Of a DNA stretch of 64,000 nucleotides, positions 7,637 to 51,086 are shown one piece after another. Source of the DNA: Escherichia coli (GTDB taxonomy: Bacteria > Pseudomonadota > Gammaproteobacteria > Enterobacterales > Enterobacteriaceae); assembly GCF_003334355.1 (NCBI RefSeq), contig NZ_QOWP01000015.1; one strand, 5' to 3'. The notes beneath the pieces were generated by a model that was given only the letters and a program-made list of their open reading frames with translations, was not told the origin of the DNA and ran no database searches. The position numbers and the translations under genes were made by a program. The stretch's first letter is position 1. Each line of letters opens with the position of its first letter.

Positions 7637-7822
7637 CTTGCCGGATGCGGCGTGAACGCCTTATCCGGTCTACAGATCCGGCACCAATGTAGGCCTGATA
7701 AGACGCGCCAGCGTCGCATCAGGCATCGTGCACCAATTGCCGGATGCGACGTAAACGCCTTATCCGGCCTACGGTTCGGACTATTTGTAGGCACGATAAG
7801 ACGCGACAGCGTCGCATCGGGC
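7637..7822. repeat. BIME / cluster of REP elements downstream of fadA
   Basis: Several alternating-orientation copies of the REP core (gccggatgcggcgtgaacgccttatccggcctac and its complement) with spacers. Confidence 0.8.
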
Positions 7823-13277: not shown

Positions 13278-15520
<2,243 letters not shown>

Positions 15521-16383: not shown

Positions 16384-17811
16384 CTAGCGCGACTGCTGAT
16401 TATATTCATCATCGCGTTGATAAGCTTCATCATTCGGCTGCTCCGGAACCGACCGAAGTCGATACTCTTCATCCTGGCTCACCGCCTGTTCAGCCAAATC
16501 CGGATTAATCTCGCGTTTAATTTCTACTCCTAAACCGCGAAACGCTTCTGCCTGCGCCAGCACATTTCCGCGCCCTGAAGAGAGTTTTTTCATTGCCTGG
16601 CGATAGTTATCCTGCGCTTTGTCGAGACTTTGACCAATCGCTGACATGTCATCGACGAACAAACGCATCTTGTCGTACAGCTTGCTGGCACGATCGGCGA
16701 TTTGCTGGGCGTTGCGGCTTTGATGCTCATAACGCCACAGGTTGGCGATAGTGCGCAGCGCCACCAGCAGCGTAGTCGGGCTAACCAGCATGATATTGTT
16801 TTTCAACGCTTCGGTGATCAGCTCCGGCTGGCGGTCAAGCGCCAGTAAAAAAGCGGGTTCAACGGGAATAAACATCAGCACGTAATCCAGAGTTCGCAGC
16901 CCCGGCAGCTGTTGATAATCTTTGCGTCCCAGCAAACGGATATGGTTACGCACCGACGCGATATGTTCCTGTAGCGCGCTTTCGCGGGTGTAGTCGTCTT
17001 CGGCGTTAAAATAGCGTTCATAGGCGACCAGCGTCATTTTGGCGTCGATCACCACATCTTTTCCCTGCGGCAGGCGCACGATGACATCCGGCTGCATCCG
17101 CGAGCGGGCGTCATTTTCGATGCTGACCTGGGTTTCATATTCATACCCTTCACGCAGACCGGAAGCCTCCAGCACCCGCGTCAATACTACCTCGCCCCAG
17201 TTGCCCTGGGTTTTATTGTCGCCTTTCAGCGCGCGCGTCAGGTTGATCGCTTCCTGGGCCATTTGCGCGTTGAGTTGCTGGAGATTGCGAATTTCGTGGG
17301 TCAGGGTATGGCGTTCTTGTGCTTCTTTACCGAAGCTGTCCTGAACCTGACGGCGGAAACCGTCCAGTTGTTCACGTAGCGGCGACAACAGGCTGTTCAG
17401 ACTCTGACGGTTTTGCTCATCAACCCGGCGATTGCTGTGCTCAAAAATACGGTTGGCGAGGTTTTCAAACTGCTCACTGAGGCGCTGCTCGCTGTTAATC
17501 ATCTGGCGAATTTTATCGTCAGCATGTTGCTGTGCGGCTTCCATCCGCGTGGTTACTTCACGCAGATCGGCCTCCAGAGAGGTGTTAATACTTTGCAGGC
17601 TGCGCACTTCGTTATTGAGTAACTCGCACTCTGCACGCCAGTGCTCGCTTTGGGTAATTTGTTGTTTTGCCGCGCTTAACTCCGCGACCATCTCTTCACG
17701 TTCAGCTAATTGCTCGGCTTTTTGCTGCGCATGTTGATAACTGGCAAACAGCCAGCCAATTGCCACACCCACCAACGCAATAACTGCGTAAACCATGATT
17801 GAGAAATCCAC
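16384..17811 (-). CDS. rmuC: DNA recombination protein RmuC (YigN)
   Basis: 475-aa ORF with N-terminal TM helix and long coiled-coil region; synteny udp-rmuC-ubiE. Confidence 0.92.
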   Translation of the reverse strand: MDFSIMVYAVIALVGVAIGWLFASYQHAQQKAEQLAEREEMVAELSAAKQQITQSEHWRAECELLNNEVRSLQSINTSLEADLREVTTRMEAAQQHADDKIRQMINSEQRLSEQFENLANRIFEHSNRRVDEQNRQSLNSLLSPLREQLDGFRRQVQDSFGKEAQERHTLTHEIRNLQQLNAQMAQEAINLTRALKGDNKTQGNWGEVVLTRVLEASGLREGYEYETQVSIENDARSRMQPDVIVRLPQGKDVVIDAKMTLVAYERYFNAEDDYTRESALQEHIASVRNHIRLLGRKDYQQLPGLRTLDYVLMFIPVEPAFLLALDRQPELITEALKNNIMLVSPTTLLVALRTIANLWRYEHQSRNAQQIADRASKLYDKMRLFVDDMSAIGQSLDKAQDNYRQAMKKLSSGRGNVLAQAEAFRGLGVEIKREINPDLAEQAVSQDEEYRLRSVPEQPNDEAYQRDDEYNQQSR

Positions 17812-17951
17812 AACGCCTCCTGACGCAACAACTTACCCGCACAAAATAGAATTGTGCTGTACAAACGTCCAGTTGGAAAGGCATTTCCTGCGAGGCGCTA
17901 CGCAAAAATACAAAAGGCCGAACGCGTCGGCCTTCAGACAGGAGAAGAGAA

Positions 17952-19794: not shown

Positions 19795-19831
19795 AAAAGA
19801 CCGGGTGGTATTACCACCCGGTTTGGATTTT
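19795..19831. terminator. Bidirectional intrinsic terminator between convergent ysgA and metE
   Basis: Hairpin ccgggtgg-tatta-ccacccgg flanked by an A-run upstream and T-rich tract downstream; overlaps the metE stop. Confidence 0.6.
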
Positions 19832-22091
19832 ACCCCCGACGCAAGTTCTGCGCCGCCTGCACCATGTTCGCCAGTGCCGCGCGGGTTTCTGGCCAGCCGC
19901 GCGTTTTCAGGCCACAGTCCGGGTTGACCCACAGGCGCTCTGCCGGAATGCGTTTTGCCGCTTTCTTCAGCAAGGCTTCAATCCATTCCACGCTCGGTAC
20001 GTTTGGCGAGTGAATGTCATAGACGCCAGGACCGATTTCATTTGGATAATCAAACTCTTCAAACGACTCCAGCAACTCCATGTCGGAACGCGAGGTTTCG
20101 ATGGTGATGACGTCTGCGTCCAGCGCCGCAATCGAATCCATGATGTCGTTGAACTCGCAATAACACATGTGAGTGTGGATTTGTGTGTCATCTTTCGCCA
20201 CGGCGGCGTTGATACGGAAGGCCTCTACGCCCCACTGGAGATACGCATCCCAGTCGCTACGACGCAGCGGTAAACCTTCGCGCAGCGCCGGTTCGTCAAT
20301 CTGGATGATGCCAATTCCAGCGGCTTCCAGATCGGCCACTTCATCACGCAGCGCCAGCGCAATCTGTTTGGCGATGGTTTCACGGCTGACATCTTCACGC
20401 GGGAACGACCAGCAGAGTATGGTCACCGGCCCCGTCAGCATCCCTTTCACCGGTTTGTCGGTCAGCGATTGCGCATACTTCGCCCACTCCACGGTAATCG
20501 GTGCCGGGCGGCTAATGTCACCAATGACAATCGGTGGCTTCACGCAGCGGGAACCGTAGCTCTGTACCCAACCGTTTTGCGTAAAGACAAATCCGTCGAG
20601 GTGCTCGCCAAAGTATTCCACCATGTCATTACGCTCGGCCTCGCCATGTACCAGCACATCCAGTCCCAAACGTTCCTGCTCAACAATGGCCTGCTTGATA
20701 TGTTCCGCAATGCCCGTGCGGTAGTTGTTGGCGTCGAGATTGCCCTTTTTGAAATCCAGACGCAGGGTACGAATTTCCGTGGTTTGCGGGAAGGAACCAA
20801 TCGTGGTGGTCGGCCACGCTGGCAGTTTAAAACGCGCACGCTGGGCTTCAGCACGCACTTCATAGACATTCGCACGCTGGCTGTCCTGGGCGGTGATCGC
20901 CGCCAGACGCTTTTCTACCGCCGGATTATGTACGCGGGTAGAGTGACGACGTGCCTGAATCGGGGCGCTCCACTCTGCCAGAGCTGCCGTGTCACCACTG
21001 TTCAGCGCATCGCGCAGCAGTGCCAGTTCATGGCATTTTTGTAGGGCGAAGGCAAACCAGCTTTTCACTTCTGCATCAAGACGCGTTTCCACGCTCAGGT
21101 CGATGGGGCTGTGCAGCAACGAGCAGGAAGATGCCACCCACAAATCACGTTTGCCGACAATGTCCTTAATTTGCGCATATTTCTCGGTAAGATCGGCGCG
21201 CCAGACGTTACGACCATTGATCAGACCCGCAGACAGCAACCAGTCAGAAGGCAGGCGCTTGTGCAGTTCAGCAACGTCATCTTTACCATGTACGAGGTCA
21301 ACATGCAGACCCTGAACAGGCAGCGCAGTAATCGTGTCGAGATTTGGCGTTACGCCTTCAAAATAGGTGGTCAGCAGCAGTTTCACCTGTCCCTGGAGCG
21401 CGTCGTAAGCGGGTTTGTATGCGTCCAGCCACGCCTGTGGTAGTTCCAGTACCAGCGCGGGTTCATCAATCTGTACCCACTCGATGCCGCGTTTCGCCAG
21501 TTCTGCCAGCACTTGCTGATAAACCGGCAGAATGTCGTTCAGCAGGCTAAGGCGGTCAAACTGTTCACCTTTCACTTTCCCCAGCCACAGGTAAGTAACC
21601 GGCCCCAGCAGCACAGGCTTAACGTTGTGGCCCAGCGCCAGCGCCTCGTCCACTTCCTCCAGCAGCTGCGTCCAGGTCAGTTTGAACTGTTGGCCTTTAA
21701 CGAACTCCGGCACCATGTAGTGATAGTTGGTGTTAAACCATTTGGTCATTTCCGCTGCCGCCGCAGGTTCGCCAGTCGGCGCACGTCCACGACCAATACG
21801 GAACAGGGTGTCGATATCTACCGAACCGTCTTTGTTCTGATGACGTGGCGGAACATTACCCAGCAGCAAACTGGTGGTCAGTACATGATCGTACCAGGCA
21901 AAATCGCCCACCGGCAGCAGGTCGATACCCGCTTGCTTTTGTTGATCCCAGTGACGAGCACGCAGTTCACGCCCTACTGTCAGCAGTTCTTCACGCATGG
22001 AGTTCCCCGCCCAATAACTTTCTTGCGCTTTTTTCAGCTCGCGACGCAGGCCAACGCGAGGGAAACCGAGGGTGTGATTAAGAATTGTCAT
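19830..22091 (-). CDS. metE: Cobalamin-independent methionine synthase MetE
   Basis: 753-aa ORF recognised as MetE. Confidence 0.96.
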
Positions 22092-22145: not shown

Positions 22146-22196
22146 ATAATTGGCGGTTACTGTATATTCCTCAAGCGCAAATTATTCATGCCGAAG

Positions 22197-22209
22197 TGAA
22201 GGACTTTCA
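22197..22209. promoter_or_regulatory. Candidate MetR binding site (TGAA-N5-TTCA)
   Basis: TGAAggactTTCA immediately abutting the metR start codon. Confidence 0.35.
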
Positions 22210-23162
22210 TGATCGAAGTAAAACACCTGAAAACGCTACAAGCGTTGCGGAACTGCGGCTCTCTCGCAGCCGCTGCGGCGACGTTGCATCAGACGCAATC
22301 CGCCCTGTCTCACCAGTTTAGCGATCTGGAACAACGCCTTGGCTTCCGGCTATTTGTGCGTAAGAGCCAGCCGCTACGCTTTACACCGCAGGGAGAAATC
22401 CTGTTGCAACTGGCAAACCAGGTGCTGCCGCAAATCAGCCAGGCACTGCAAGCCTGCAATGAACCGCAGCAGACGCGTCTGCGCATTGCCATTGAGTGCC
22501 ATAGCTGTATTCAGTGGCTGACGCCCGCGTTAGAAAATTTCCATAAGAACTGGCCGCAGGTAGAGATGGATTTTAAATCGGGCGTGACGTTTGACCCGCA
22601 GCCCGCGTTGCAACAGGGCGAGCTGGATCTGGTGATGACCTCCGATATCCTGCCGCGCAGTGGCCTGCATTATTCGCCGATGTTCGACTATGAAGTGCGT
22701 CTGGTGTTAGCACCTGACCATCCACTGGCGGCGAAAACGCGAATTACACCGGAAGATCTCGCCAGCGAGACGCTGTTGATTTATCCGGTACAGCGTAGTC
22801 GACTGGATGTCTGGCGGCATTTTCTTCAGCCGGCAGGCGTCAGCCCGTCACTGAAAAGCGTCGATAACACCTTATTGTTGATTCAGATGGTTGCCGCACG
22901 GATGGGTATTGCCGCGCTACCGCATTGGGTAGTAGAGAGTTTTGAGCGCCAGGGTCTGGTGGTGACCAAAACCCTGGGCGAAGGCTTGTGGAGCCGACTG
23001 TACGCCGCCGTGCGCGATGGAGAGCAGCGTCAGCCAGTTACGGAAGCGTTTATTCGCTCAGCGCGCAATCACGCCTGCGATCATCTGCCGTTTGTGAAGA
23101 GCGCGGAGCGACCCACTTACGATGCACCCACAGTGAGGCCAGGATCACCAGCGCGCCTGTAA
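22209..23162 (+). CDS. metR: LysR-family transcriptional regulator MetR
   Basis: 317-aa ORF with N-terminal HTH recognised as MetR. Confidence 0.95.
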
Positions 23163-34878: not shown

Positions 34879-37041
34879 TTATACCGTCTCCAGCCGGGCG
34901 TAAGCCGCCACCAGCCATTTGATTCCCTGGCCCTGGAACGCCACCTGCAAACGGCTATGTTCACCGCTGCCTTCCATATTGACGATGGTGCCTTCACCAA
35001 ACTTAGCGTGGCGTACACGCTGGCCGAGCTTGTAGCCGCTGTCGTTCTCGACCATCGGCGTACCCATACGCTGATGGCTGACCGGGCGGCTTACCGTGGC
35101 GCGCAGGCGCACCTCTTCCACACACTCTTCCGGCAACTCACCGATAAAGCGCGACGGGCGATGGTAAACCTCTTTGCCATACAGACGGCGAGTTTCCGCG
35201 TAGGTCAGCGTCAGTTTCTGCATCGCACGGGTTACGCCAACGTAGGCCAGACGGCGTTCTTCTTCCAGACGACCGCCTTCATCCAGCGACATCTGGCTTG
35301 GGAACATGCCCTCTTCCATACCGACGATAAACACCTGCGGGAACTCCAGCCCTTTCGCCGAGTGCAGCGTCATCAACTGCACCGCGTCCTGCCAGGTATC
35401 CGCCTGCCCCTCGCCCGCTTCCAGCGCCGCATGGGAGAGGAATGCCTGCAGCGGCATTAAATCTTCGTCTTCTTCGTTGTAGCTGAACTGGCGCGTTGCC
35501 GTCACCAGTTCCTCCAGGTTTTCGATACGCGTCTGACCTTTTTCGCCCTTCTCCTGCTCGTACATGGTGCGCAGGCCGGAGTCTTTAATTACCCGGTCAG
35601 TCTGTACATGCAGCGGCATATCGGCAGTTTCTTGCGCTAAGGCGTCGATTAATTCCATAAATCGCTGCAAGGCGCTGGCAGCTCGCCCGGCGAGGGCTTT
35701 TTCCTGCAACAGCTCACGACATGCCTGCCAGAGTGTTAACTGGCGATCGCGCGATGTCTGACGTACCACGTCCAGCGTCCGGTCACCAATACCCCGCGTT
35801 GGCGTATTCACCACACGCTCAAAGGCCGCGTCGTCGTTGCGGTTGGCAATCAGGCGCAGATACGAGAGCGCATCTTTGATTTCCTGGCGTTCGAAGAAGC
35901 GCATCCCGCCGTAAATACGGTACGGCATACTGGCCTGCAATAACGCCTCTTCGAGCACCCGCGACTGGGCGTTGCTGCGGTAGAGAATGGCGCACTCGGC
36001 AAGCGCTCCGCCGTTGTCCTGCCAGGTTTTGATGCGGTTAACCACAAAACGCGCTTCATCGAGTTCGTTAAAAGCGCAATAGAGGGAAATAGGCTCACCG
36101 TCCGCGCCATCGGTCCACAGTTTTTTACCCAGACGCCCGTTATTGTTTTCAATCAGGGCGTTAGCGGCGCTCAGAATATTGCTGGTAGAGCGGTAGTTTT
36201 GCTCCAGACGAATAGTTTCGGCACCGGGGAAATCATTAAGGAAACGCTGAATATTCTCCACCTGCGCCCCGCGCCAGCCGTAGATTGACTGGTCGTCATC
36301 ACCGACGATCATCACTTTGCCGGTGTCGCCCGCCAGCAGGCGGATCCACGCGTACTGAATGTTGTTGGTATCCTGGAATTCGTCCACCAGGATATTGGTA
36401 AAACGTTCGCGGTAGTGTTGCAGGATATGCGGCTTGTTAAGCCACAACTCGTGAGCGCGCAGCAGCAGCTCGGCGAAGTCCACCAGGCCCGCGCGGTCAC
36501 ACGCTTCCTGATACGCCTGATACACCTTCTGCCAGGTCTGCTCCACCGGATTACCGTAGCTTTGAATATGATGCGGACGCAGGCCTTCATCTTTCTGGCT
36601 GTTGATGTACCACATTGCCTGCCGCGGCGGCCACTGCTTCTCGTCGAGGTTCATGGCTTTGATCAGACGCTTAAGCAGGCGTAGCTGGTCTTCACTGTCG
36701 AGGATCTGGAAATCCTGCGGCAGATTGGCGTCCATATGGTGCGCACGCAGCAAACGGTGCGCCAGCCCGTGGAAGGTGCCGACCCACATACCGCCCTGGC
36801 TCGTGCCCATCAGTTGCCCGATACGATGACGCATCTCCGCCGCCGCTTTGTTGGTAAACGTCACCGCCATAATCGAGTATGGCGAGCAGTTTTCCACGCT
36901 CATCAACCAGGCGATACGATGCACCAGTACGCGCGTCTTACCACTGCCCGCGCCCGCCAGCACCAGAAGGTTGCTGCGTGGCGCGGCCACCGCTTCGCGC
37001 TGTTTGTCATTAAGGCTGTCGAGCAGGTAAGAAACGTCCAT
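34879..37041 (-). CDS. uvrD: DNA helicase II UvrD
   Basis: Track ORF extends to 37230; recognised 720-aa UvrD begins MDVSYLLDSLNDKQREAV at ATG 37041; Walker A GAGSGKT. Confidence 0.96.
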   Translation of the reverse strand: MDVSYLLDSLNDKQREAVAAPRSNLLVLAGAGSGKTRVLVHRIAWLMSVENCSPYSIMAVTFTNKAAAEMRHRIGQLMGTSQGGMWVGTFHGLAHRLLRAHHMDANLPQDFQILDSEDQLRLLKRLIKAMNLDEKQWPPRQAMWYINSQKDEGLRPHHIQSYGNPVEQTWQKVYQAYQEACDRAGLVDFAELLLRAHELWLNKPHILQHYRERFTNILVDEFQDTNNIQYAWIRLLAGDTGKVMIVGDDDQSIYGWRGAQVENIQRFLNDFPGAETIRLEQNYRSTSNILSAANALIENNNGRLGKKLWTDGADGEPISLYCAFNELDEARFVVNRIKTWQDNGGALAECAILYRSNAQSRVLEEALLQASMPYRIYGGMRFFERQEIKDALSYLRLIANRNDDAAFERVVNTPTRGIGDRTLDVVRQTSRDRQLTLWQACRELLQEKALAGRAASALQRFMELIDALAQETADMPLHVQTDRVIKDSGLRTMYEQEKGEKGQTRIENLEELVTATRQFSYNEEDEDLMPLQAFLSHAALEAGEGQADTWQDAVQLMTLHSAKGLEFPQVFIVGMEEGMFPSQMSLDEGGRLEEERRLAYVGVTRAMQKLTLTYAETRRLYGKEVYHRPSRFIGELPEECVEEVRLRATVSRPVSHQRMGTPMVENDSGYKLGQRVRHAKFGEGTIVNMEGSGEHSRLQVAFQGQGIKWLVAAYARLETV

Positions 37042-37099
37042 TGGCACCGCCGCGTAAAAATAGGTTGGGCGGAGAAGCGCAACGCCCTCCGCCAAAAAG

Positions 37100-37115
37100 C
37101 TGGGTATATATACAG
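37100..37115 (-). promoter_or_regulatory. LexA (SOS) box in uvrD promoter
   Basis: Minus-strand CTGTATATATACCCAG (CTGT-N8-CCAG, near-consensus SOS box) about 60 bp upstream of the uvrD start; coordinates +/-1. Confidence 0.7.
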
Positions 37116-37124
37116 ATTTGCTGA

Positions 37125-37841
37125 TTATATCAGCGAGGTCAGAGATGCCAACCGGGAAATTTCCAGATGCGGCAGTAAACGGCTGTCCCAGGTTTGCATC
37201 AGATCGCCATTTTCCGGTCTGATCCAACAAGCCTGCATTCCGCTGCGAATTGCCCCACCCACGTCAGTGGTGAGATCGTCCCCAACATGTAAGATCTCGC
37301 CGATCGGCACGTTGAGTTTTTCCGCAGCCAAAAAGTACATATCGCTGAACGGTTTTGAGCGCCCGTGCGGGCCAGCGCGCAGCACAAACTCAAAATAATC
37401 CCCCAAACCAAACAGCTCCGGCTGGGCGTTACCGTTGGTGATCGCCACCAGCGGCCATTTCTTCGCCAGCTGTTTTAAGGTGTCGTGAGTTTGCTGCGGG
37501 ACGTCGATTCGGCTGCGCCATTTGGCAAAGTTGATCATTGCTGCGTGTGCGCCTGCACTGGCTTCTTCGGCACTCAGCCCGGCGTCGAGCATCGCTTGTT
37601 CAATCGAACGAAAACGCCAGCGCGTCACGTCGTGATAAATCTCGGGTTCCGCTTCCCGTACCGCCTGGCGCAGGCGTTGCAGATCTTCATTCTGGAAGCT
37701 GCGCAGCGCCGGATGATAATTTTGCACAAAGGTAAGCGCCTCTCGCTCGGTGCGCAAAATCACCGGACGGTTATCGTAAAGGGTATCATCCAGGTCAAAG
37801 GTGAGCGCCGAGATGCGCCCCAAAGGCCGGTAAAAACGCAT
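37125..37841 (-). CDS. yigB: HAD-family phosphatase YigB
   Basis: 238-aa ORF with HAD motif I (FDLDDTL); last gene of the dapF-yigA-xerC-yigB cluster. Confidence 0.9.
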
Positions 37842-38737
37842 TATTTCCCCCGTTTGGCGCGTGGATGCGCCGCATCGTACACCGAGGCAAGGTGTTGAAA
37901 ATCAAGATGAGTATAGATTTGCGTGGTGGAGAGGTTGGCATGACCCAGCAGCTCCTGCACACCACGAAGATCGCCGCTCGACTCCAGCATATGCGTGGCG
38001 AACGAGTGACGTAATTTATGCGGATGAACGTGATTATTCAGCCCTTGTTTTATGCCCCATTCGGCAAAGCGTTTCTGCACATTACGCGCGGAGATACGCT
38101 TGCCCAGTTTCGACAGAAAAAGCGCGTCGTCTTCGCTACCAAACAGGTCGCGCAAATCAAGCCAGTGCTCAATCCACGCCACAGCGTTGCGACCAATCGG
38201 CAGGCGGCGCTCTTTGCTGCCTTTCCCCATAACCCACACTTCACCAGACTCCAGGTCGAGGTGTTTAATATCCAGCCCCACCAGCTCAGAAAGACGCAGA
38301 CCCGCGCCGTACATCACTTCCAGCATTGCACGGTCGCGTACAGCGAGGGGATCATTGATATCAATATCCAGCAGCCGATTCATATCGTCGACGTCGATGT
38401 TTTTCGGCAGATGACGCGGCGCTTTCGGTGCCGAAACACCTTTCGCCGGGTTAGCTTTGAGTTCGTTCTGGCTGACCAGCCAGTCAAAAAAGCTACGTAG
38501 CGCAGAAAGCCGTAACGCCAGACTTGCTGCTCCCAGCCCTTTACGGCGACTGCGTACAGCAAAATTGCGCACCATCGTCACATCACATTGCTGCCAGCTT
38601 TGCAGGCCGTTTTCGCTGGCAAAATTGATGATCGCCTCAAGCTGACGCTGGTAGTTAAGCAGGGTTATCGGGCTAAGCTGGCGCTCCACGCTCAGATAAC
38701 GTAGGTAGCGTTCTACATCGGTGTGTAAATCGGTCAT
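37841..38737 (-). CDS. xerC: Tyrosine site-specific recombinase XerC
   Basis: 298-aa ORF with integrase C-terminal catalytic residues (HxxR ... Y). Confidence 0.95.
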
Positions 38738-39441
38738 ACGCGTTCAATCCAACGCTCCAGAAGCTCCGGCAACATCAGCGCAATTTCATGAAGTAACTGC
38801 GTTCCTTGCCCTTGTTGATAGTGACTGGCATCGCGACTGGTAAACAGCACGACACCCAAATCAGCATCGCTTCCCAGCATCGACATCGCCACCGATCCCA
38901 CCGCTTTCGCTTCCGGTAGCACCACCAGCAGCTCTGGTCCGTTAAGCGGCCCAAGATAGTGCTGTTCCTGCCCCAAACGCTGAATACGCAGCGGTTCGAA
39001 AGACTGACGGCTTAATGCCAGATGAGTGTGGTTCGACGGCGCACCTAAGCGCCAGCGATCCGGAAACAGGCGCAGACTCGCACCTGCCAGGCCGAGATCG
39101 CGCGCCCAGCGGTGAAAGCGCATCAGCATATCGTCGAGACTGCTGGCGGCGGTGAGACTGCGCTGCAGGTAGAGTAGGCGATAAAACAGGCCTTCGTTGG
39201 CGATAGCCTGTTCCATCAACAGCGCCATGTTCTCTTCCAGAACATGAATATGATTACGTGCGCGGGCCATGTGCCACTCGACCAACGAAACGGTGCCGCG
39301 TACCGGATGCGGCACACGTATCGCTTCTACTGCGCGCGCATTACGGATAAAAAACTCAGGATTTTTAATCAGATAATCGACAACCGCCCGGTCATCAAGC
39401 TCCGTGAGTGTTTCCTGCAGTTCTTCCCCTGGTTGCTTCAT
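38734..39441 (-). CDS. yigA: DUF484-family protein YigA
   Basis: 235-aa ORF; 4-bp overlaps with dapF and xerC. Confidence 0.88.
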
Positions 39442-48391: not shown

Positions 48392-48598
48392 AAAAAAACG
48401 CCTGCTCTTATTACGGAGCAGGCGTTAAAACAGGTCTGTATGACAACAAGTGGGTGCTTCACTCAACGTTGTGTCCATGGTGTCTGATGAGGCATAAGCG
48501 ACATCTGTCAGTGGACGATAAGCACCGTAAACGGCTCTGCGTCATTCCGGAGTTTATGAGGCACTAAGGCGAACATAAGAGATGGAATGAGCATCTAC
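48392..48598 (-). ncRNA. glmZ: GlmZ small RNA (SraJ/RyiA), glmS activator
   Basis: Minus-strand transcript beginning GUAGAUGCUCAUUCCAUCUCUUAUGUUCGCC and ending in hairpin AACGCCUGCUC-CGUAAUAA-GAGCAGGCGUU plus U7; location (hemY/aslA intergenic) and about 207-nt length fit GlmZ; ends +/-2. Confidence 0.8.
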
Positions 48599-50649: not shown

Positions 50650-50726
50650 TGGTCGGCGAGAGAGGATTCGAACCTCCGACCCACTGGTCCCAAACCAGTT
50701 GCGCTACCAAGCTGCGCTACTCGCCG
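50650..50726 (-). tRNA. proM: tRNA-Pro (anticodon UGG)
   Basis: rc reads CGGCGAGTAGCGCAGCTTGGTAGCGCAACTGGTTTGGGACCAGTGGGTCGGAGGTTCGAATCCTCTCTCGCCGACCA; cloverleaf with TTTGGGA anticodon loop; encoded CCA; ends +/-1. Confidence 0.93.
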
Positions 50727-50768
50727 AAATACTGCTTTTTGAATTTTTAGTTCAATTCTTTAAAGTCG

Positions 50769-50855
50769 TGGTGCGAGGGGGGGGACTTGAACCCCCACGT
50801 CCGTAAGGACACTAACACCTGAAGCTAGCGCGTCTACCAATTCCGCCACCTTCGC
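50769..50855 (-). tRNA. leuT: tRNA-Leu (anticodon CAG)
   Basis: rc reads GCGAAGGTGGCGGAATTGGTAGACGCGCTAGCTTCAGGTG...CTCGCACCA; 87 nt with long variable arm; ends +/-1. Confidence 0.93.
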
Positions 50856-50875
50856 ATTGTCACAACTTCTAATAA

Positions 50876-50952
50876 TGGGGTGGCTAATGGGATTCGAACC
50901 CACGACAACTGGAATCACAATCCAGGGCTCTACCAACTGAGCTATAGCCACC
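50876..50952 (-). tRNA. hisR: tRNA-His (anticodon GUG)
   Basis: rc reads GGTGGCTATAGCTCAGTTGGTAGAGCCCTGGATTGTGATTCCAG...CCACCCCA with the His-specific extra 5' G; ends +/-1. Confidence 0.93.
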
Positions 50953-51009
50953 ACTACAAATCTTGTTACGCGGTATTACTACCACCGCAGCTCAAGCGCC
51001 GGGACTAAA

Positions 51010-51086
<77 letters not shown>

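Follow-up and report, generated by a model that had tools for sequence, protein, structure and literature searches.

The locus lies in a 64,000-nucleotide stretch of Escherichia coli DNA, which was analyzed at its full length and which we call the window. All features described here are on the minus strand unless otherwise stated. The regulated gene is uvrD, which encodes DNA helicase II and occupies 37041..34879, with its ATG start codon at 37041..37039. Upstream of it is yigB (37841..37125), the last gene in the run dapF-yigA-xerC-yigB, whose TAA stop codon is at 37127..37125. The 83 bp between these genes (37042..37124) contain the last base of a −10 hexamer, the transcription start site, a LexA operator, a hairpin and T-run in the leader, and the ribosome-binding region. 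Genes were assigned using the list of open reading frames and the RefSeq annotation of E. coli genomes that are 100% identical to this DNA, and the gene names and the 83-bp gap are found in that annotation too. The control region equals that of MG1655, in which uvrD begins at 3997983, base for base over 241 nt. Of 5426 complete E. coli genomes, 5402 carry a 131-nt control region with at least 99% identity to this one. Next to the start codon, GGCGGUG (37045..37051), followed by CCA and AUG, is a putative Shine-Dalgarno sequence. In most Enterobacterales, either (c)ggcggtgcca or acggtgcyt is kept directly beside the ATG. Sequence, positions, motif strengths, promoter geometry, hairpin stability and conservation, as given here and below, were computed in this analysis.

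A promoter scan identified a −35 hexamer, TTGGCA, at 37146..37151 (−34..−29), within Leu-Ala codons of yigB (cgg TTG GCA tc). It also identified an extended −10, TGaTATAAT, at 37124..37132, in which the TG is at 37132..37131 and TATAAT is at 37129..37124 (−12..−7). Together these elements form a sigma-70-like promoter with an 11/12 match, a 16-nt spacer and the TG preceding the −10. This is the sole sigma-70-like match in the surrounding 900 bp (36700..37600), where 0.5 would be expected, and no second consensus promoter was found in that interval. The extended −10 begins in the final two codons of yigB, continues through the TAA stop and ends on a single intergenic T, such that the stop codon supplies bases 3–5 of TATAAT. 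The entire −35 and five of the six bases of the −10 are inside the yigB coding sequence. An earlier note on this DNA had proposed that both the uvrD promoter and its operator are squeezed into the 83-bp gap, which is correct for the operator but not for the promoter.

Transcription of uvrD starts at an A at 37117 (MG1655 position 3997907), which lies 76 nt before the ATG. Arthur et al. are said to have mapped the uvrD start in 1987 using S1. This start falls 7 nt after T37124, where the −10 ends, and coincides with base 1 of the operator 20-mer. The MG1655 position is given in Reg-Seq supplement files 1 and 11, which cite Arthur et al. 1987, and the Reg-Seq notes mention a second validated uvrD start site (PMC7567609). 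An entry for uvrD (b3813) was not found in the portion of the TSS supplement of PMC3415461 that was available.

The LexA operator, or SOS box, is the 20-mer ATCTGTATATATACCCAGCT at 37098..37117, which was scored by its heterology index (HI). Tables 4 and 7 of PMC3009722 give the identical sequence for the uvrD box. Its palindromic core, CTG-N10-CAG, is CTGTATATATACCCAG at 37115..37100, and reads CTGGGTATATATACAG on the plus strand (37100..37115). The core is 9 nt from the yigB TAA and 58 nt from the uvrD ATG, in good agreement with the distances of about 10 bp and about 60 bp, and with the 83-bp gap, that the earlier note had given. Relative to the start site from the literature, the operator spans +1..+20, and it begins about 7–8 nt past the −10 and is wholly downstream of it.

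The strength of this operator requires some care to describe. Its core matches the consensus at 14 of 16 positions, but the match over the whole of TACTG(TA)5CAGTA is 14/20. The promoter-proximal half-site is perfect, the distal half has two mismatches and the flanks are poor. We made four versions of an HI matrix from 17–18 published LexA boxes (PMC3009722 Table 4), which yield an HI of 5.66, 8.41, 7.82 or 10.44; these matrices differ from the original Lewis 1994 matrix, and the values are not directly interchangeable with published HIs. The highest value comes from the strictest matrix, from which uvrD was omitted and which was symmetrised. The published HI of the uvrD box is 8.5 (PMC11228462 Table 1). 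Both the published and the computed values (5.7–10.4) fall within the span of HIs seen for accepted E. coli operators, so the matrix scoring that the earlier note had suggested as a check favors a genuine site. With our matrices, the 18 known boxes have HIs of 0.1–12.3, among which the uvrD box is 11th to 17th. The description of the box as near-consensus is thus generous, and, judged by these scores, the uvrD operator is a mid-to-weak LexA site.

Given such a match, it is important to consider whether the palindrome is an AT-rich CTG-N10-CAG that arose by chance and has no regulatory role. The bare pattern is indeed common: the window has 30 occurrences, double the number expected from shuffling (14.9 ± 3.8), and the uvrD site has just 14 of 20 consensus positions. 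Nearly all of these occurrences are GC-rich, and the excess probably results from CTG/CAG codon usage. Because the pattern is over-represented throughout coding DNA, its count was dropped as a test of significance. However, under all four matrices ATCTGTATATATACCCAGCT ranks first among the approximately 128,000 20-mers of the window, and the second-best LexA-like site, the rmuC/yigN box, is itself an established SOS site. When the window was dinucleotide-shuffled 200 times and scored with the strictest matrix, an equally good site appeared in only 4 of the shuffled sequences, averaging 0.02 such sites per window. The uvrD site also coincides exactly with the start site from the literature. A box upstream of uvrD is also present in Vibrionaceae, Moritella and Alteromonas, with its position and orientation unchanged across three orders. 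No LexA-like box was found upstream of uvrD in Shewanella.

The repressor footprint and the LexA-dependent induction, like the start site, are taken from the literature. A mutational reporter assay revealed a repressor footprint at +6..+14, the only such site detected there, whose matrix matches LexA (Reg-Seq, PMC7567609). The curators of that study classified the uvrD LexA site as having "low evidence" in databases (PMC7567609). Expression of uvrD is induced 2.1-fold by AZT, with a 1.7-fold LexA dependence (PMC11228462). This small induction fits a weak operator, i.e., one that matches 14 of 20 positions and has a mid-to-low rank. Conservation and these published data have already refuted the chance interpretation, to which we assign virtually no probability. 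The box proposed in the earlier note is therefore confirmed as the uvrD SOS box: it is the best LexA-like site in 64 kb, is rarely equaled in shuffled sequence and is listed in PMC3009722.

We compared the promoter and operator among 45 species of Enterobacterales. At the −35, TTGGCA, TTGGCT or TTGGAT is present in 44 of the 45 species, and 44 likewise retain the G at the synonymous position of the TTG codon. The −10 region is still more uniform, in that all 45 species have a Leu codon ending in G (providing the TG), a last yigB codon of the form NTA and the stop codon TAA. The T following the stop is kept in 43. By comparison, third positions of yigB codons outside the promoter carry 0.03–0.9 bit in these species. 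Just past the −10, a LexA-like box with an HI of 6.2–16.9 occurs in 44 of the 45 species; the exception is Xenorhabdus, with an HI of 20. What varies in this region is the length of the leader, with yigB-uvrD gaps of 39 to 155 nt across orthologues. Outside of this order, placement of the stop codon within the −10 is also found in Moritella and in Aeromonadales-like genomes, and Vibrionaceae keep the module of a −10 followed by a box without yigB upstream.

These comparisons bear on whether bound LexA acts mainly as a roadblock to read-through from dapF-yigA-xerC-yigB, and not, or not only, as a repressor of the uvrD promoter. No terminator separates the yigB stop from the box, which lies 9 nt further on, so all upstream transcripts must cross it, and in 44 of the 45 Enterobacterales the yigB-uvrD adjacency and the box occur together. 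However, Vibrionaceae retain the −10 and the box even though yigB is gone from upstream. The box therefore goes with the promoter, and we rejected the idea that it is tied to the yigB-uvrD junction. Moreover, with respect to a near-consensus promoter, the box occupies +1..+20, the usual location for repressing initiation, and a weak operator (HI about 8.5) would make a poor block. We consider a primary role as a roadblock to be very improbable, and prefer repression of initiation at the uvrD promoter.

Between the promoter and the start codon is a hairpin, GGCGGAGGGCG-UUG-CGCUUCUCCGCC, at 37068..37093 (+25..+50). Its stem has about 11 pairs and is GC-rich, and its loop has 3 nt. In E. albertii, the lower stem is retained via a change from G-C to G-U. 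The predicted folding energy of the 46-nt segment is −17.9 kcal/mol (z = −2.63), and 3 of 200 shuffled sequences were as stable; the whole 79-nt leader, taken together, does not exceed its shuffled versions in stability (z = 0.03). A T-run, UUUUU, at 37056..37060 (+58..+62) begins 7 nt past the stem, after the spacer CAACCUA. The earlier note did not mention a hairpin in the gap. The hairpin is present as a single copy in the window, and we therefore rejected the possibility that it is a repeated (REP-like) element. A scan of the window with Rfam gathering thresholds placed no family on the uvrD leader. A scan for canonical intrinsic terminators, which allowed 0–2 nt between the stem and the U-tract, did not call the hairpin, the T-run being too far from the stem, and we have not classified it as such a terminator. 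The available part of the Term-seq supplement of PMC7815308 yielded no entry for uvrD (b3813).

Our preferred reading is that this hairpin forms the stem of the uvrD attenuator. The title of the 1983 paper by Easton and Kushner, as given in a reference list, refers to control of uvrD "by attenuation", and states control by LexA and DNA damage as well. If the hairpin is the attenuator named in that title, then the UUUUU would likely be the release point of an attenuated transcript of about 60 nt. The alternative is that the hairpin is chiefly a leaky terminator of the yigB operon, or a 5' stem-loop that stabilizes the mRNA, as opposed to a regulated attenuator of uvrD. This alternative has some merit. 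With the promoter inside yigB, the uvrD leader is the only place where a terminator for that operon could lie, and the 79-nt leader showed neither a leader peptide nor an alternative antiterminator pairing that could make termination conditional. In a set of 39 orthologous leaders with a minimum length of 25 nt, z averages −1.35 and falls below −2 in 14, so hairpins recur in many genera, but their sequences are unrelated and most lack a T-rich tail, which is present in only about a quarter of leaders. Because the short leaders found in several genera have no hairpin and T-rich tails are few, attenuation is not a conserved requirement. On the other hand, the wording of the 1983 title favors attenuation, and the hairpin and UUUUU are positioned such that short RNAs initiated at the uvrD promoter could be released there too. 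In addition, roles in termination or stabilization and in attenuation are not mutually exclusive. We therefore regard a chiefly non-attenuating hairpin as unlikely, though it deserves to be taken seriously, and continue with the attenuator.

The overall picture is the classical control of E. coli uvrD, comprising a sigma-70 promoter embedded in yigB, a LexA operator on the start site and an attenuator in the leader. We are highly confident in this assignment. The SOS box, promoter and attenuator of uvrD are already known, and have been textbook material since 1983. In this mechanism, RNA polymerase recognizes the promoter with its TG-extended −10 in the last yigB codons and initiates at 37117. 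A LexA dimer on +1..+20 would cover DNA that RNA polymerase needs in the open complex, and so would repress initiation; we infer that this block is steric. Upon DNA damage, RecA-stimulated self-cleavage of LexA frees the operator. Since the operator is only moderately near the consensus, repression is leaky and induction small, and such leaky control suits a helicase whose constitutive presence is also required for mismatch and excision repair. Downstream, the GC-rich hairpin at +25..+50, with the U-run 7 nt further on, may halt a fraction of the transcripts. Because the promoter is inside yigB, the same hairpin and U-run would also be the first terminator-like element met by transcripts leaving the dapF-yigA-xerC-yigB operon.

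These considerations suggest a broader hypothesis about the end of yigB. Its last approximately nine codons and TAA would be fixed by having to spell the −35, TG and −10 of uvrD, in a design that predates Enterobacterales, and the hairpin would consequently serve as both the exit terminator of dapF-yigA-xerC-yigB and the attenuator of uvrD, thereby coupling the outputs of both. The first part, that the yigB end appears to be dual-use and constrained, is well supported by the alignments. The dual role of the terminator and the coupling of the yigB operon with uvrD output are, like partial termination at the T-run, what we infer from the arrangement of these elements. Taken in its entirety, the hypothesis is tentative, and we judge its chances to fall slightly short of even.

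The locus provides a small, clean example of a promoter that is embedded in a coding sequence and constrains synonymous sites and the choice of stop codon across a bacterial order. Such embedding matters when only "intergenic" DNA is scanned, or when yigB is recoded or deleted. The fact that a true operator was recognized from sequence alone while the promoter was misplaced has value for calibrating this kind of reading.

Comparison with known systems places the locus as follows. It is the same locus as the uvrD region of E. coli K-12 (Easton & Kushner 1983, Arthur et al. 1987), without any difference. With ftsK and other SOS operators that overlap a start site, it shares CTG-N10-CAG, a TA-rich spacer, a location in the footprint of RNA polymerase and de-repression by cleavage of LexA; at ftsK, LexA is at −8..+4 (Reg-Seq, PMC7567609). 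It differs from other SOS operators in that its box is wholly past the −10, its induction is about 2-fold and its leader has an additional, terminator-like hairpin. The boxes of tisB, umuD, recN and recA have HIs of 1.8–5, whereas that of uvrD is weaker, at about 8.5 (PMC11228462). The leader resembles intrinsic terminators and attenuators in its GC-rich stem, 3-nt loop and run of five Us, but canonical intrinsic terminators have a U-tract directly after the stem, in contrast to the 7-nt spacer of the uvrD leader. The orthologous uvrD of Salmonella Typhimurium is likewise LexA-controlled, according to Pang & Walker 1983 as cited by others. Its expression is induced 13.9-fold by nalidixic acid, with basal expression that is LexA-independent. 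The Salmonella box is 105 nt from the ATG and has an HI of 11.48, as compared to 58 nt and 8.5 for uvrD in E. coli.

The window comes from the E. coli chromosome. Around the uvrD box, a stretch of 1401 nt is present in 5426 of 5426 E. coli genomes and is 100% identical to many complete ones, in which RefSeq names its genes xerC, yigB and uvrD. K-12 MG1655 shows no differences from the window over 241 nt around the box. The 131-nt control region reaches at least 99% identity in 5402 of the 5426 genomes and the 1401-nt flank in 2821, figures that are only roughly comparable given their different lengths. Both yigB (37841..37125, with its TAA at 37127..37125) and uvrD (37041..34879, starting with ATG) lie on the minus strand, and the gap between them (37042..37124) measures 83 bp, as it does in annotated genomes. 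Farther upstream, the stop of xerC (38737..37841) and the start of yigB share one base (37841), and dapF/yigA and yigA/xerC each overlap by 4 bases (38734..38737, 39438..39441). The genes dapF-yigA-xerC-yigB form a tightly coupled four-gene run with the uvrD promoter at its end; in strain ER1709 (L001), the upstream yigA has an internal stop.

The core of the LexA box, CTGTATATATACCCAG (37115..37100, minus strand), lies 9 nt from the yigB stop and 58 nt from the uvrD ATG; its sequence, position and distances, as well as the 83-bp gap, are as described in the earlier note. The bare CTG-N10-CAG pattern occurs 30 times in the window, where 14.9 +/- 3.8 copies are expected and none of 100 shuffles reaches 30. 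Nearly all copies have a GC-rich spacer and lie in coding DNA, and the excess likely reflects how common CTG and CAG codons are at in-frame distances, rather than operators. Because this pattern is thus uninformative, we built heterology index (HI) matrices of the Berg-von Hippel form from the 18 E. coli LexA boxes of PMC3009722 Table 4, where the uvrD box is the exact window sequence, and scored all 20-mers of the window on both strands with four matrix versions. The 20-mer ATCTGTATATATACCCAGCT (37117..37098, minus strand) ranks first in all four. Its HI is 5.66 (asymmetric) or 8.41 (symmetrised) with uvrD included in the matrix, and 7.82 (asymmetric) or 10.44 (symmetrised, the strictest version) with uvrD left out. 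In the same matrices, the 18 accepted boxes range from about 0.1 to 12.3 and random 20-mers average 37-41; the published HI of the uvrD box is 8.5 (PMC11228462 Table 1). The poor LexA score that might have spoken against an operator was therefore not found.

With the strictest matrix, an equally good site arose anywhere in only 4 of 200 dinucleotide shuffles of the full 64 kb. That the box is a chance palindrome is excluded by its rank and these shuffles, together with its position, its conservation and published functional data. At the sequence level the site has all the properties of a LexA operator; its binding by LexA and induction by damage rest on the literature. However, the description "near-consensus" overstated its quality: it matches the consensus at 14 of 16 core positions and 14 of 20 overall. 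The half-site nearer the promoter has no mismatch; the far half has two (ACCCAG instead of ATACAG), and the flanks on both sides are off consensus. Since it ranks only 11th to 17th among the 18 known boxes, it is a mid-to-weak operator.

A consensus scan of 36700..37600 found one sigma-70-like site, with 0.5 expected, that matches at 11 of 12 positions. Its -35 element, TTGGCA (37151..37146, minus strand), falls within the yigB codons cgg-TTG-GCA-tc (Arg-Leu-Ala-Ser), and a 16-nt spacer separates it from the -10 element, TATAAT (37129..37124, minus strand), which is preceded by TG. The -10 is spelled by bases 2 and 3 of the last yigB codon (ATA), its TAA stop and the T that opens the gap. All sequence features of an extended -10 sigma-70 promoter are present. 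The Reg-Seq study (PMC7567609 supplement files 1, 11), citing Arthur et al. 1987, places the uvrD start site at MG1655 3997907 and calls it "experimentally validated ... known to be regulated by LexA". As uvrD begins at 3997983 in MG1655, transcription starts 76 nt upstream of the ATG, at window position 37117. That position follows the -10 by exactly 7 nt and coincides with the first base of the 20-mer, so the operator spans +1..+20; the mutational footprint in Reg-Seq has a repressor site at +6..+14 with a matrix matching LexA (PMC7567609). The notes of that study mention a second uvrD start site, which we did not locate. The proposal that promoter and operator are squeezed into the gap therefore holds in part: the operator, leader and ribosome-binding region are there, but the promoter is inside yigB. 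The AT-rich GAAATTTC (37163..37156, -46..-39), which immediately precedes the -35 in the place expected for a proximal UP-element, is unusually conserved, with the Ile codon ATT in 43 of 45 Enterobacterales.

We compared this arrangement across 80 species, retrieved by searching genomes with residues 1-250 of UvrD. Each of the 45 Enterobacterales has yigB immediately upstream of uvrD (gaps of 39-155 nt); in all of them its C-terminal peptide is conserved, with variants, its stop is TAA, its last codon is NTA, and the Leu codon before that ends in G, giving the TG of the extended -10. The Leu codon within the -35 is TTG in 44 of 45, and a T directly follows the stop in 43 of 45. Other nearby third-codon positions of yigB carry only 0.03-0.9 bit. 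The promoter-encoding positions of yigB stay fixed even where synonymous codons would be available. It is a mildly interesting by-product that there is such clear evidence of an embedded promoter fixing synonymous sites and stop choice across a bacterial order.

Of the 45 Enterobacterales, 44 have a LexA-like box (HI 6.2-16.9) downstream of the -10, the exception being Xenorhabdus ehlersii, with a best site of HI 20. These boxes start 1-12 nt past the -10 and are therefore always inside the polymerase footprint. The yigB stop also lies in the -10 in Moritella, a gammaproteobacterial MAG and Oceanisphaera. In Vibrionaceae, yigB is gone from upstream of uvrD, yet TATAAT is followed after 8-10 nt by TGTATAAATAACCAGT. 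The promoter-operator module is thus old, and tied to the promoter and not to the gene junction. Bound LexA might instead be a pure roadblock to upstream read-through, but this is unlikely because promoter and box persist where yigB is not upstream. In Alteromonas the LexA box is between -35 and -10, and in Shewanella uvrD promoters (cTGTTATACT) it is absent.

The stretch from operator to start codon contains a leader hairpin, GGCGGAGGGCGUUGCGCUUCUCCGCC (37093..37068, minus strand, +25..+50), of -17.9 kcal/mol (z = -2.63; 3 of 200 shuffles are equally stable). It is single-copy in the window and matched no Rfam family. A CAACCUA spacer and then UUUUU (37060..37056) follow on its 3' side, and RNA from 37117 to this U-run would measure about 58-62 nt. 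With 7 nt separating stem and U-run, and no call from a terminator scan, the hairpin is not a canonical intrinsic terminator; the distance is compatible with partial termination. Two published end-mapping supplements list no uvrD 3' or 5' end in the portions searched. Attenuation of uvrD is named in the title of a 1983 paper by Easton and Kushner, and the hairpin and U-run may remove a fraction of uvrD transcripts. With the promoter inside yigB, transcripts leaving the dapF-yigA-xerC-yigB operon would also meet this structure before any other terminator-like element. It may act mainly as a uvrD attenuator, as a terminator of the yigB operon or as a stabilising 5' stem, and these roles are not exclusive.

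The leader sequence is unconserved across other Enterobacterales; nonetheless, a hairpin directly after the box recurs. For the 39 leaders of 25 nt or more, z averages -1.35; it falls below -1 in 21 and below -2 in 14. A T-rich tail is present in roughly one leader in four, and no hairpin occurs in genera whose gap measures 39-49 nt. In E. albertii the lower stem is preserved by a G-C to G-U change. In the GTDB representative E. coli (L002), the 3' arm carries G->A (ctccAcc), which breaks one C-G pair and reduces the stability to -12.5 kcal/mol. The distance from box to ATG is highly variable (gaps of 39-155 nt), and some genera have long, very stable inserts (examples among loci L004, L009, L028, L037): the L004 leader (-49.7 kcal/mol, z -4.6) contains a REP-like GCCCGGTAAGCGAAGCGCCATCGGGC segment, and that of L009 a strong canonical terminator-like hairpin with a U-run. 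Conserved beside the ATG is GGCGGUG (37051..37045, minus strand), followed by CCA-AUG, which is likely the Shine-Dalgarno element of uvrD.

Elsewhere in the window, the second-best LexA-like 20-mer is AACTGGACGTTTGTACAGCA (17855..17874, box on the minus strand, HI about 10-11.4). A 475-aa ORF on the minus strand (17811..16384), in the rmuC/yigN position, has its GTG (17811) 43 nt downstream of this site; rmuC is a listed SOS gene with HI 8.8 (PMC11228462), and in Salmonella the yigN box reportedly lies 44 nt from the ATG. Another site, TACTGTATATTCCTCAAGCG (22158..22177, plus strand, HI about 11-13), has a perfect left half-site, TACTGTATAT, and a broken right half (CAAG for CAG). Two divergent ORFs, of 753 aa (19830..22091, minus) and 317 aa (22209..23162, plus), flank the 117-nt spacer that contains it, a metE/metR-like position; the site is probably not an operator. 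At the gathering score, Rfam hits in the window, all on the minus strand, are the Erse sRNA (14915..15166, 319 bits), GlmZ (48392..48598, 218 bits), naRNA4, a REP-derived nucleoid-associated RNA (7692..7769), and a cluster of four tRNA genes (50653..51086).

Given the motif, its conservation and the start site in the literature, sigma-70 RNA polymerase would start at the promoter embedded in yigB, and LexA at +1..+20 would block open complex formation or escape, as its position and the reported repressor footprint suggest. DNA damage leads to RecA-stimulated cleavage of LexA, which would relieve the block. The earlier interpretation was correct as to the operator, while misplacing the promoter and overstating the strength of the site. 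The weak operator would imply substantial basal expression and small induction. The uvrD control region in the window is, base for base, that of E. coli K-12 itself, beyond mere likeness; it is already known and is no new element. In E. coli, uvrD shows 2.1-fold induction by AZT and 1.7-fold LexA dependence (PMC11228462), and Salmonella uvrD is placed by the literature in a group with LexA-independent uninduced expression.
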